A DNA stretch of 64,000 nucleotides from an uncultured Phycisphaerales bacterium (GTDB lineage Bacteria > Planctomycetota > Phycisphaerae > Tepidisphaerales > Tepidisphaeraceae): positions 1,312,001 through 1,376,000 of the forward strand of contig CAVWVQ010000003.1 in assembly GCA_963758525.1 (NCBI GenBank), in the 5' to 3' direction. The notes under the pieces were generated by a model. It had not been told where the DNA came from, did not search any database, and saw only the letters and a list, made by a program, of their open reading frames with translations. A program made the position numbers and the translations under genes. The first letter of the stretch is position 1. Every line of letters begins with the position of its first letter. This document shows positions 1 to 4,442 of this stretch, one piece after another.

Positions 1-631
1 TTCACCCCCCTCCAAATCCAGTCATTCAACCCGCTCTTTTCCGGATTCCCGATCGCGTATTCCACCGCATGTATAAGGTCCTTCTCGTCGCGAACAAGAT
101 GGTCGTAGTACTCGGTCAGCCAGTATTCTCCACTTCGGTTGAGCAGCTTGTTTGCTGCTCGCGCCGTCCAGAGTTTCCAGGAATGAAGAACCGCGTGCAG
201 TTCGACGCCCCGCAGCGGCTGCAGCACCACATGGACGTGATTCGGCATGATGCACCATGCCAACAGCCTATACCGCTCGCCATCGAAGTGCTTCAGCGCA
301 TTCTCCACCATCTCCGCAATTTCAGGCTCGCCAAGTGTGCATGAGCCATGGCCGGCGTCGAGATACGACTCGACCCGATCGGAGTACAGGTATTCCAATC
401 GCTTTAGCTCGTCGGCAGATAGCGGCCGTCTTTGATCACGCGCCGTCTCGATAATGGCTTGGCGCTCAGTACGCCAGCTCTTGAGAACTTCGGCTGGCAG
501 GGAATCCGCAAGGCGAAAACATACTGCATAAATCGACCCGTTCTTTGTCCAGTGCGGGAGACGGGCGCCCTGGCGGACCTGAAGATTACTTTTACTCGGC
601 GCCGTTCGCACGGGTTGGAAACCCGTGGTAC
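1..631 (-). mobile_element. REP palindrome plus REP-associated tyrosine transposase (RAYT/TnpA-REP, HUH Y1) domain, in frame with dinG
   Basis: Translation RQGARLPHWTKNGSIYAVCFRLADSLP...AWCIMPNHVHVVL...HSWKLWTARAANKLLNRSGEYWLTEYYDHLVRDEKDLIHAVEYAIGNP contains the HUH motif (HVH), the DHxVR motif and the catalytic YxxxNP. It is preceded by palindrome CACGGGTTGGAAACCCGTG (609-627). Confidence 0.88.
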
Positions 632-1907
632 GCGAGGTGCAGAGGGTTGCGCTGGTGAGCACCACGCTCTTCACCTTCTCGAACAGATGCGTCTTGAGGC
701 CCGAGGCGATGCTCACGGGGGCGGCGTGAAGCGCGAGCTTGCGCGACGGACCTTTGGACAGGTCCATCCAATACACCGTGTCATCCACGGCCTGGCTCAT
801 GATGGCTTCAAGCATGGCGGCGGTATTGGCGATTTTGTCGGCCGTGCTGCTCAGCTCGGAAATCTCGGCGTCTTCCGTCAGCGATGGCAGCATCGCCTTG
901 AGATGGAGCGAAAGATTGCGCAGTTTCGGGGAGAGGTCGTTTTCGACCACGTGCGGCTGATCGATCCGGCCGTTGCCGCGGCCCTGCTCGCGCTGCCAAT
1001 CGGCGCAGCGGTCGAAAAAGGCGTCGGTCAGAATGTGCAGTTCTTCCACGTCGCGGATCGCGTCGTTGGCGGCCGAAGCGTGCGTGCTGAGCATCCCCTT
1101 GCCGCGTTTGGGATCGTGAAGCATGCGGAGCTGATATCGCATGCCGTTCTCGGTGATGTTCATTCCAAAGTGACTGGCGGCGACGTCTTCGATGGTGTGG
1201 CCTTCATCGAAAATCACGGCGTCGTACTTTGGCAGATAGTTGATGCCCGCCATGCGCAGCGCCAGATCGGAGAAGAACAGCGCGTGATTGACGATGAGAA
1301 TCGTTCCGTTTTGCATGCGGCGTTTGGCTGCCTGCCAGAAGCATTCGTTGTAGTAATTGCACTTCTTGCCGAGGCAGTTTCCATGTTCCGCGCAGACGCG
1401 GTCCCACACGCCCGGCTCGGGCTCGACGGGCAAATCAGATCGTGACCCGTCGCGGGTTTCGGTGGCCCATTTCTCGATATCCCACAGCGACTCGAGCTGC
1501 CGTTGCTGTTCGAACAGCGACCCCTGCCGCGCGCGTGTCTGTTCCAGTCGCCGCTGGCAGAGATAGTTGCCGCGCCCCTTCACCAGCACGGCGGTAAATT
1601 CGTCGGGATAGACCGCCTGCAGGAGCGGGATGTCTTTCTGGATTAACTGTTCCTGCAAAGCGATGGTGTGGGTCGAGATGACGATGCGCTTTTGTTTGCG
1701 CACGGCGAAGTCGATCGCCGGCAGGAGATATGCGAAGGACTTGCCGACGCCGGTGCCCGCCTCGACGAGCAGATGATGTTCGTCGGTCAGCGCGCGCTCG
1801 ACAGCCTCGGCCATCTCCAATTGCTGCGGGCGAAACTCGTAACGCTCGCCAAGCCGGCGCGCGACGGCGCCATCGGGGGCGAGAATTGATTCCAGCGCGG
1901 AGGACAT
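1..1907 (-). CDS. dinG: DinG-family ATP-dependent Fe-S helicase (N-terminal part, runs off the window edge) with an in-frame RAYT domain insertion
   Basis: Hand translation from ATG 1907 gives FRPQQ (Q motif), EAGTGVGKS (motif I), Cys cluster NYLC..VCAEHGNCLGKKCNYYNEC, IFDEGH (motif II) and VLTSATL (motif III). I read the frame codon by codon with no stop over 1-250 and 537-662. It is absent from the ORF track, as expected if it stays open to the window edge. Confidence 0.92.
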   Translation of the reverse strand, partial: MSSALESILAPDGAVARRLGERYEFRPQQLEMAEAVERALTDEHHLLVEAGTGVGKSFAYLLPAIDFAVRKQKRIVISTHTIALQEQLIQKDIPLLQAVYPDEFTAVLVKGRGNYLCQRRLEQTRARQGSLFEQQRQLESLWDIEKWATETRDGSRSDLPVEPEPGVWDRVCAEHGNCLGKKCNYYNECFWQAAKRRMQNGTILIVNHALFFSDLALRMAGINYLPKYDAVIFDEGHTIEDVAASHFGMNITENGMRYQLRMLHDPKRGKGMLSTHASAANDAIRDVEELHILTDAFFDRCADWQREQGRGNGRIDQPHVVENDLSPKLRNLSLHLKAMLPSLTEDAEISELSSTADKIANTAAMLEAIMSQAVDDTVYWMDLSKGPSRKLALHAAPVSIASGLKTHLFEKVKSVVLTSATLCTSRTTGFQPVRTAPSKSNLQVRQGARLPHWTKNGSIYAVCFRLADSLPAEVLKSWRTERQAIIETARDQRRPLSADELKRLEYLYSDRVESYLDAGHGSCTLGEPEIAEMVENALKHFDGERYRLLAWCIMPNHVHVVLQPLRGVELHAVLHSWKLWTARAANKLLNRSGEYWLTEYYDHLVRDEKDLIHAVEYAIGNPEKSGLNDWIWRGV

Positions 1908-2205: not shown

Positions 2206-2867
2206 CTAACGTCCAATCTCTTCCTTCCACAAATGCGGATGGGCGGCAATGAAATCCTTCATGATGCGAATGCATTGCGAATCGTGGAGGTCGACGACTT
2301 GCACTCCGTGGGATTTGAGGAATTCGGGATCGCCGGCGAAATTTTCCGATTCTCCGACGACGATCCTGGGCACGCCAAACTGAACTGCGGCGCCGCTGCA
2401 AAGGTGACAGGGCATCAGCGTGGAGTAGAGCACGGTGTCCTTATAGGTCTTCTGCCGGCCGGCGCGCGTCAAACAGTCGATCTCGGCGTGAGCCATCGGA
2501 TCATTGTTCTGCACGCGACGATTATGGCCGCGGGCGATGACCTGCCCGTCCCGCACCAGCACCGATCCAATCGGCACGCCGCCCTCGGACAAACTGAGGT
2601 TGGCCTCTTCCAGGGCGGCGAGCATAAACGGGTCCGGCGCGGCGCCGGGTTTGAGGGCGGCGAGGTCGCCGACATCTTTGGGCGCCAATTCGGCCGCCGA
2701 TTTGGTCTCCTTTTGAATCTGCTGATAGACCTCCTTGCGATGGACGGGCACCTTGCGGGCGCGCTGATGCCGAGGCGCACTTTTTCGCCGCGCACATCGA
2801 CTACGGTGACTTCAATTTCGTCACCGATCATAATGGTCTGGTCGCGCGTGCGGGCGAGCACAAGCAT
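2206..2867 (-). CDS. csrA: CsrA (carbon storage regulator) domain fused to an FCY1-like Zn-dependent cytosine/nucleoside deaminase; 1-nt frameshift near 2757
   Basis: ATG 2867 gives MLVLARTRDQTIMIGDEIEVTVVDVRGEKVRLGISAP. One added base continues into KVPVHRKEVYQQIQKE (CsrA C-terminal helix), which reads without a stop into DPFMLAALEEA...GHNRRVQ...HAEIDCL...LMPCHLC...LWKEEIGR. Confidence 0.85.
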
Positions 2868-2923
2868 GGAGTTGCCTCGATTCAATGAAACTACTGAAAT
2901 GATAGGCGCTTGGATGGGTTCGG

Positions 2924-3627
2924 TCAGGCGAGGGGACGCCCTTTCTGCTGCGACGGCGGGCGGGGGTACTTGTCGGAAGTGTCCCGGCGTTTGGGGATCT
3001 CGACGATCACATGCTGCTCCGCGCCGCTCAGCATCACCGGATGAATCTTCACGTCGCCGCCGCCCAGCAGGCGGATGATGCGCTGTGCGCCGGGGAGTTC
3101 GTCGGCCACCTTTGGGCCTTTCATTGCCAGCATCTTGCCTCCGGTTTTGACCAGGGGCAGGCAATACTCCGCGAGAAAATCGAGTGTGGCGACGGCACGG
3201 GCGACAACCACGTCAAACGCGCCGCGGTGCTTCGTGCGGGCGACGTCTTCGGCGCGTTGATCGCTGATGCTGACGTTGGTCAATACCAGCTCCGCGACCG
3301 CGCGCTGCAGAAACGCGGCTTTTTTGCGGGTGGATTCGATCAGGAACACGTGCGCATCCGGCCGGGCGATCGCCAACGGAATGCCGGGAACGCCTCCGCC
3401 GGTCCCCACGTCCGCCAGGCGAAAATCGCCTTGCGGCAGCAGCGGAAGCAGCGTGAGCGAATCAGCAACATGCTGCAGTTCGGCAGCGGCGCGGTCGGTG
3501 ATCCGCGTGAGATTCATCGTCTCGTTGGCGGCAAGAAGGAGGTCGAGATAGCGCCCAGACGCTCGTGCTGCGAGGCATCCAAGGTGCGGCCGGCATTGGC
3601 GGCCAGGGCCGTCCATTGGTCGTTCAT
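2924..3627 (-). CDS. rsmG: 16S rRNA m7G527 methyltransferase RsmG (GidB); probable 1-nt frameshift near 3555
   Basis: Motifs [45 protein letters not shown]. The start MNDQWTAL overlaps the thiG stop (ATGA). Confidence 0.93.
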
Positions 3628-4442
3628 TCGCCGGGAATATAGCTGATGACGCCGGCGAAGGGCGAGCTTGCGGTCGCGTATCGCTTGCGGGGAATGCGAC
3701 CGGCTTCGTATGCCAGCCGGCCGGACTCGAGCGCATGGCGCATCGCATGGGCCATCTTGACGGGATCTTTCGCATGGGCGATGCCGGTGTTCAACAAGAC
3801 GCCATCAGCGCCCAATTCCATTGCGATGGTCACGTCGCTGGCGGTGCCAACGCCCGCATCAACGATCACCGGATACGTGGGATCGTTTTCCTTGAGCGTC
3901 TCCAGGCACAGCGAAATGTTGAGGGGATTGAGCACGCCCTGCCCCGAGCCGATGGGGCTTCCGGCCGGCATTACGCATGCCGCGCCGGCTTCCTTCAGCC
4001 GCCGGGCGGCAATCGGATCGTCGCTGGTGTAACAGAGAACGGTAAAGCCTTCCTTCACCAGCTCGCGCGTGGCTTCCAGCGTGCCGAGCGGATCGGGGAG
4101 AAGTGTTTTTTTGTCGCCGAGCACTTCCAGCTTCACCCATCCCGCGCCCGGATTCTTTTGCTTTTCCAGCAGGTCGCGGCCCAGGAGCGAGACGCGCACC
4201 GCATCCTCCGCGTTGAAGCAGCCGGCGGTGTTGGGGAGAATGACGTAGCGGTCGAGATCGAGAAACTCCAGCAGACTGCGCCCTTCCTTGTCCACCAGCC
4301 GCTCGCGGCGCACCGCCACCGTCACGACCTGCGCACCGCTGGCGTCCAGCGCCTGCCGCATGACTTCATAGTCGGCGTACTTCCCCGTTCCGACGACGAG
4401 CCGGCTTTTGACCTCGAATTTTCCAATCTTCAACACGTTCAT
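3624..4442 (-). CDS. thiG: Thiazole synthase
   Basis: Motifs [44 protein letters not shown] and the C-terminal ATASSP. Confidence 0.97.

Follow-up and report, generated by a model that had tools for sequence, protein, structure and literature searches.

CsrA has been studied as a small stand-alone dimer under the control of sRNAs or FliW. Within the window (the whole 64,000-nt stretch of planctomycete DNA analysed here), a CsrA domain appears instead to lead into a zinc cytosine deaminase (Table 1), which raises the question of whether the two form one protein and, if so, what such a protein would do. The CsrA part scores 61.7 bits against PF02599 over residues 1-40 of the protein (cut-off 27), and the NCBIfam whole-protein CsrA cut-offs are not attained by the window's 46-aa CsrA fragment. 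Codons 1-37 are identical (37/37) to those of the intact 220-aa relatives P0002, P0004 and P0005. The second frame, stop-free from K39-VPVHRKEVY across the linker into a complete deaminase, matches the same three at 148-151 of 182 residues in a gap-free alignment. The pieces sum to 220 aa and align with intact relatives on either side of a one-base frame shift at about 2760-2755, just as the sequence-only reading had proposed in describing a protein of about 220 aa with a single base missing inside CsrA. CsrA here is hence not a small stand-alone protein, being in one frame with the deaminase. No Met stands ahead of the DPF start of the deaminase, as had also been noticed, and a Met three residues or fewer before DPF occurs in 4 of 104 full-length relatives.

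Table 1. Features of the fused gene and its surroundings, in window positions.
Feature	Position	Strand	Basis
Fused gene, CsrA + zinc deaminase	ATG 2867 to TAG 2206	-	sequence
CsrA codons 1-37 (M1, L2, L4, R6, I14, R26, R31)	2757..2867	-	PF02599, E 6.5e-17
One-base frameshift within CsrA, at or directly after GCGCGC (2764-2759)	2755..2764	-	frames, relatives
CsrA residues 39-60 (beta5 with V42-H43-R44, helix; Thr at FliW-contact position 55)	2689..2754	-	sequence, alignment
Linker, residues 61-78, low-confidence, length varying among relatives	2635..2688	-	model of relative P0003, loci
FCY1-type zinc cytosine deaminase, residues 79-220 + stop	2206..2634	-	PF00383, E 2.3e-22
Deaminase motif HAE	2490-2482	-	sequence
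Deaminase motif PCHLC	2412-2398	-	sequence
Deaminase lid WKEEIG	2229-2212	-	sequence
Promoter-like element: -35 CTGACC, 17 nt, -10 TATCAT, ~30 nt upstream of ATG	2899..2927	-	consensus match only
rsmG (gidB), usual upstream neighbour	2924..3775	-	PF02527
thiG, next after rsmG	3624-4442		PF05690
DinG-like helicase, downstream	3..1907	-	profile match

Relatives settle the question of the fusion itself. A search with the downstream (deaminase) frame gave 120 top hits, of which 118 hold PF02599 and PF00383 in one chain, as the proposed fusion predicts; the two exceptions are fragments, one of 179 aa and one from the window itself. Two separate genes divided by a stop codon in the linker, the arrangement that would have spoken against a fusion, are ruled out by the fused frames in relatives: 180 loci with a deaminase match included 56 fused ones and 122 without a csrA nearby (some of these contigs end early), and only one (L169) was a genuine adjacent-but-separate case, with csrA, a stop codon and then the deaminase ~300 nt apart. 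A linker does exist, at ~18 aa here rather than the 25 or so first estimated; it ranges from 13 to 56 aa (median 29) across 54 fused loci, and its pLDDT falls below 50 at residues 61-63 and 66-76 in the model of relative P0003.

The break in the window's copy was judged against the quality of the assembly, using 317 ORFs of a congeneric genome, 130 of which matched at ≥50% identity over ≥100 aa. Frameshifts interrupted 24 of these 130 conserved genes (~18%, or ~1 per 2,200 aligned residues). GCGC lay inside 16 of the 23 breaks that could be located to ≤25 nt, against 1.8 expected (0 of 20,000 simulations), and homopolymers were not supported as a cause, the longest runs at the breaks being 2-4, the same as background. 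A bias towards GCGC of this kind would be expected if the assembly was built from long reads, which can err systematically at methylated motifs. Since frameshifts are this common in conserved genes and, like the present one, mostly fall at GCGC, and since relatives are intact, the one-base break is very likely an assembly error; claims of broken genes or programmed frameshifts elsewhere in this assembly are best treated as likely artefacts as well.

The fusion is widespread in one family and, in a sample of the class, was detected only there. It forms one uninterrupted match from residue 1 in 39 of 121 family genomes (≥80% complete) and, with a divergent query, in 42 of 140; the union of both queries comes to at least 47 of 140 (including the unpublished G004). 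Frameshifted copies occur too, with a late shift in G118 and a shift as in the window's genome in the few-contig genomes G135 and G101. The match is of deaminase length only in ~45 family genomes (an approximate figure, as G070 proved fused), and a stand-alone deaminase was confirmed directly in 8 of them, so that the fusion is evidently dispensable in the family. In a sample of 400 genomes from the class, a search at E 1e-60 found it in 17 of 63 family members and in 0 of 337 genomes from 23 other families. Fused loci are labelled Tepidisphaeraceae, Tepidisphaerales or Phycisphaerales, and an automatically named, 80-member ESM Atlas cluster carries both domains, mostly from Planctomycetota where the source is known. 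Databases name the fused proteins after a single domain: cytosine or creatinine deaminase, codA, or CsrA. No description of a CsrA-deaminase fusion was found in a search of mostly open-access literature: "CsrA" is absent from the main text of Iyer et al., 2011 (PMC3239186), whose supplements may list such architectures, and "deaminase" and "fused" are both absent from PMC7366521. Each domain is well known; their fusion, apparently undescribed, would amount to a new class only if editing or ligand-switching were shown.

The rsmG cluster accompanies 29 of 52 fused loci and the DinG-like helicase lies downstream in 8 of 52, the window included in both counts and many contigs being short. No salvage or pyrimidine gene was seen among recurring neighbours (BLAST clusters, read by eye), and no flagellar gene near any of 54 fused loci. 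A thiG-rsmG-deaminase-dinG locus without csrA exists (L048, L049), and fused and stand-alone deaminases intermix on a quick, weakly supported tree that kept 25 of 67 outside rows, some of the "stand-alone" rows being contigs that end early. The csrA and deaminase of L169 (positions 88-1070), each stand-alone and the latter of the same clade, may represent a pre-fusion or post-fission state. Two tandem repeats in opposite orientation lie beyond the window's deaminase, one of 7 nt (8 copies, 2147-2205) directly after its stop and one of 8 nt (17 copies, 1928-2061) just downstream. The DinG-like helicase contains an in-frame match of marginal score to an IS200-like Y1 transposase (PF01797, residues 543-601).

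By sequence, the fused CsrA derives from a duplicate of the flagellar-type csrA. A canonical fliW-csrA-flagellin cluster stands elsewhere in the window's genome, and in the fusion-bearing genomes fetched the flagellar csrA has flagellin beside it in 21 of 21 cases and fliW in 20 of 21. The fused copy shares on average 76% identity with the flagellar CsrA of the same genome. Across 20 genomes mean identity is 96% for flagellar and 69% for fused CsrA, so the fused copy evolves faster. Constraint on it is looser yet not gone, since its dN/dS is 0.12, against 0.10 for the deaminase (7 closest pairs, non-independent, 6 coming from four related sequences); these low ratios show purifying selection on both halves.

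Among 73 distinct fused ORFs, drawn from loci with a CsrA match at E 1e-4, L4, R6, R26, R31, R44 and E46 are kept in all 73, I14 in 72 and H43 in 64, and the window has L4, R6 and R44. Of these, L4 and R44 are described as critical CsrA RNA contacts (PMC7652899). N55, a FliW contact required for FliW binding in Bacillus (bioRxiv 2020.07.02.184341), occurs in 60 of the 73; the window and the relatives closest to it have Thr there. The best PDB match of the fused CsrA is Geobacillus CsrA (5DMB chain D, E 1e-14). With FliW-controlled CsrA, as in the FliW-CsrA-flagellin switch of B. subtilis, it shares L4, R44, I14 and usually N55, and it closely resembles the family's own fliW-csrA-hag copy; it differs in its enzyme partner, its location away from the flagellar cluster, its faster evolution alongside an intact flagellar copy, and the loss of N55 from the window's sub-group. 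The fused CsrA would most likely be a working translational repressor that binds GGA sites. Other CsrA forms also turned up: a third CsrA-like gene of the window's genome, with a ~35-residue insertion after the first strands (G000, L003:1366-1872, minus strand, C3 near 2,033,200), and tandem double CsrA proteins, possibly single-chain dimers (P0330, P0339, P0341, P0343 and several hits of 130-240 aa).

Upstream sequences suggest that the fused gene has its own promoter: three promoter-like sites lie in the region (0.3 expected), and many fused relatives have a CCTATAAT/CCTATCAT motif like it ahead of the gene. Of the fused leaders, 30 of 53 contain two or more GGA within 50 nt, against 2 of 27 for stand-alone deaminases; GGAAGGA is found in 21 of 21 flagellar csrA leaders and in 11 of 53 fused ones. 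Such a pattern would be expected if csrA was duplicated together with its leader, and self-repression is possible, but the excess of GGA may also come from the csrA leader by descent or be Shine-Dalgarno sequence. GGA is absent from the window's own leader, and six leaders (the window's and five from relatives or flagellar csrA) gave no significant fold for GGA hairpins. GGA was not enriched in upp leaders, which average 0.67 in the 15 genomes with the fusion and 0.79 in 14 others; hag leaders in the fusion-family genomes carry a conserved GGAGGA. Candidate CsrA sites are shared by the family's flagellin leaders (CAATCAYGGAGGATT) and by its flagellar csrA leaders (GGAAGGAGC; both in L001, L211 and L219-L238).

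The deaminase half resembles yeast cytosine deaminase far more than TadA-type nucleic-acid deaminases. In a PDB sequence search, relative P0003 matched the yeast enzyme at E 1.2e-36 and TadA at 1e-17. Its AlphaFold model (pLDDT mostly >90 across the deaminase domain) retrieved yeast cytosine deaminase at Foldseek ranks 1-25 throughout, with an rmsd of 1.0-1.3 Å for most chains. The TadA model gave the window protein 77.9 bits and so missed its cut-off of 150, and the window's genome holds a separate gene that we take, from its motifs, to be TadA-like (L004). A full-length upp is present in that genome, and a full-length match to it in 28 of 30 relatives. The zinc ligands and catalytic Glu (H62, E64, C91, C94) are kept in 71-72 of the 73 fused loci and the free-base pocket and lid in most (N51 and F114 in 70 each, W152 in 68, D155 in 64); residues of this type hold the base or gate release in yeast cytosine deaminase, where Asp155 hydrogen-bonds the ligand (PMC11000218). 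FCY1 orthologues are on record in bacteria and archaea (bioRxiv 2021.11.29.469899). Compared with yeast Fcy1 (PDB 1UAQ, 1P6O; 42-47% identity), most fused relatives have the same zinc ligands, pocket and C-terminal lid; the fusion adds an N-terminal CsrA and has derived forms without the lid or the zinc ligands. With TadA, ADAT and APOBEC it has the superfamily fold and the HxE...PCxxC motif in common, but matches them far more weakly and has a closed pocket with a lid.

Given the yeast match, the conserved pocket, the missed TadA cut-off, the separate TadA-like gene, upp and the known bacterial FCY1 enzymes, we predict from these comparisons that the substrate is, with high likelihood, free cytosine. 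The sequence-only reading had cautioned that the lid pointed to a free-base enzyme, a caution that the family bears out, and had raised RNA-targeted editing, for which the window protein proved a poor candidate. The window retains N51, F114 and W152 and, unlike yeast Fcy1, has Glu at position 155, as in 1 of 120 hits. Its copy could be decaying, because besides this Glu it departs from five near-invariant columns (five or more departures in 6 of 120 hits, window included). This deaminase family has taken other N-terminal partners, such as the cupin domain of P0121. In the window's genome (G000, C3 near 4,915,000), L006:610-1980 (plus strand) encodes what is presumably a HAD-family phosphatase, by its motifs, fused to a zinc deaminase (HAE, PCxxC), and frames of 400-480 aa with a deaminase match, akin to it, recur in relatives.

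The fused protein is predicted to be a homodimer through both halves. A two-copy model of P0003 built with its alignment scored 0.73, against 0.00 for the best of three controls, with runs agreeing in ≥98% of contacts and pLDDT ≥85; among solved structures, 20 of 30 homodimers and 1 of 23 monomers attain the mark used for this score. The model formed a CsrA interface as well as a deaminase interface, and the predicted interfaces probably arise by likeness to solved dimers.

Not every member of the group keeps an intact enzyme. A profile search of 1.84 billion representatives recovered full-length fusions without zinc ligands, and a zinc-less query added more. Of 190 fused proteins, 176 keep HxE/CxxC, one is truncated and 13 lack these motifs, a set enriched by searching with the zinc-less query; none occurs among the 119 hits nearest the window. 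All 13 keep L4, R6, R26, R31, R44 and N55, and the most diverged have lost pocket residues too. On the tree the zinc-less state needs three to five changes, with long-branch warnings. The CsrA half can thus outlast catalysis, as the repeated loss of zinc ligands with CsrA kept shows at the level of sequence. Another 16 proteins keep the zinc site without the Asp155-Ile156 lid. Fifteen of them group together (SH-aLRT 88) next to nine zinc-less ones, ending at or near the W152 position, with invariant HxE/CxxC, an invariant Asp at the Asn51 position and a CsrA that is strictly conserved. A closer kinship of this lid-less clade to TadA is refuted by both sequence (yeast cytosine deaminase E 7e-31 vs. 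TadA 4e-25) and fold (ranks 1-25 yeast cytosine deaminase). The clade may be a step towards a pseudo-enzyme. More broadly, the relatives that lost the zinc site yet kept CsrA suggest a regulatory protein emerging from an enzyme. It seems a long shot that such an enzyme-to-regulator series is in progress with the lid-less branch serving as a natural, GGA-guided deaminase of RNA or nucleosides; a weaker form would have base binding by the deaminase domain switch repression by CsrA.

How, then, might the two halves work together? We put it at slightly better than even that the locus encodes one 220-residue protein in which a dimeric salvage deaminase carries a loosely tethered, working CsrA repressor. 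The deaminase half would convert free cytosine to uracil for salvage, and Upp would turn the uracil into UMP. The CsrA half would repress translation of mRNAs with GGA-containing leaders, its own leader probably among them, and such self-repression would make enzyme levels depend on the CsrA-FliW-flagellin circuit, with FliW control where N55 is kept. The halves would be loosely tethered rather than allosterically coupled. Allostery is central to another, unlikely reading, in which cytosine, uracil or a related base, once bound by the deaminase domain, switches RNA binding by CsrA, catalysis being secondary; a coupling of CsrA to pyrimidine salvage or sensing had also been raised by the sequence-only reading. 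PyrR offers a precedent for such pyrimidine-sensing logic in an RNA regulator, as an RNA-binding metabolic or trigger enzyme. Like it, the fusion joins pyrimidine-salvage ancestry and RNA-binding regulation in one polypeptide with a drift from enzyme to regulator, but takes its RNA binding from a separate, borrowed CsrA domain and showed no link to the pyrimidine leaders compared, those of upp. A base-sensing regulator would account for the 13 of 190 proteins that lack HxE/CxxC while retaining L4, R6, R26, R31, R44 and N55, for the three to five changes on the tree, for the genomes holding zinc-less forms (G150, G142) and for G117, which pairs a lid-less fusion with a separate stand-alone deaminase match. 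It fits poorly with a low-confidence linker of 13-56 aa, with neighbours that include no recurring pyrimidine gene, with upp leaders free of any GGA excess and with the pocket residues gone from the most diverged zinc-less variants; the zinc-less set itself is query-enriched and absent from the 119 hits nearest the window.

Distinctly less probable is a flagellar decoy or modulator, in which the main role of the fused CsrA is to soak up FliW or to pair with flagellar CsrA in mixed dimers, the deaminase serving as a bulky scaffold for dimerisation. N55 in 60 of 73 loci and in all 13 zinc-less variants, I14 in 72 of 73, the 76% mean identity to the flagellar copy, fliW beside csrA in 20 of 21 genomes and the GGAGGA of hag leaders would suit this role. 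However, the RNA-contact residues are kept more strictly than N55, which the window's sub-group has lost, none of 54 fused loci is near a flagellar gene, and strong constraint acts on the deaminase site of most members. We give still less credence to a mere passenger, a duplicated csrA ahead of the deaminase acting as an expression leader or dimer-stabilising tag with no RNA regulation: the patchy distribution, with fused and stand-alone forms intermixed on a weakly supported tree, the csrA-free version of the locus (L048, L049), the csrA/stop/deaminase arrangement of L169 and the faster evolution of the fused CsrA are what one would expect of it, but all 73 loci have the basic RNA-contact residues R6 and R44 although adjacent positions vary, dN/dS is about 0.12, and the CsrA half persists in 13 proteins that have lost the catalytic site. 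An RNA-targeted C-to-U editor, with CsrA docking at GGA and the deaminase acting on nearby bases, is the obvious thought for an RNA binder joined to a zinc deaminase, and in the lid-less clade, with Asp for Asn51 and HxE/CxxC invariant in its 15 members, absence of the lid could open the pocket. We nevertheless regard it as highly improbable, and somewhat less so for the lid-less branch only, because the FCY1-type half has a free-base pocket and lid, and this pocket is closed in most relatives as well as in the window protein. In RNA the sugar sits on the ring position that Asp155 contacts, even the lid-less clade matches yeast cytosine deaminase before TadA and groups with zinc-less variants, and the genome has, we assume, its own TadA-like gene in L004.

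A CsrA joined throughout a family, and under selection, to a nucleobase enzyme is a third arrangement for this regulator and allows a direct test of whether CsrA control in planctomycetes responds to pyrimidine status. For the passage from enzyme to regulatory scaffold, the intact, lid-less and zinc-less forms provide a ready comparison series. Should the lid-less branch act on RNA, it would offer a compact deaminase with natural RNA targeting, and a bacterial RNA editor made from a salvage enzyme.

CsrA has also been joined to an acetyltransferase. Four proteins of 246-251 aa (P0354, P0355, P0361, P0382) are CsrA-GNAT fusions with a similar proline-rich linker. In 141 family genomes none of the 78 matches listed covers the CsrA part, so that this fusion appears to be rare; it is a second case of CsrA placed ahead of a small enzyme.
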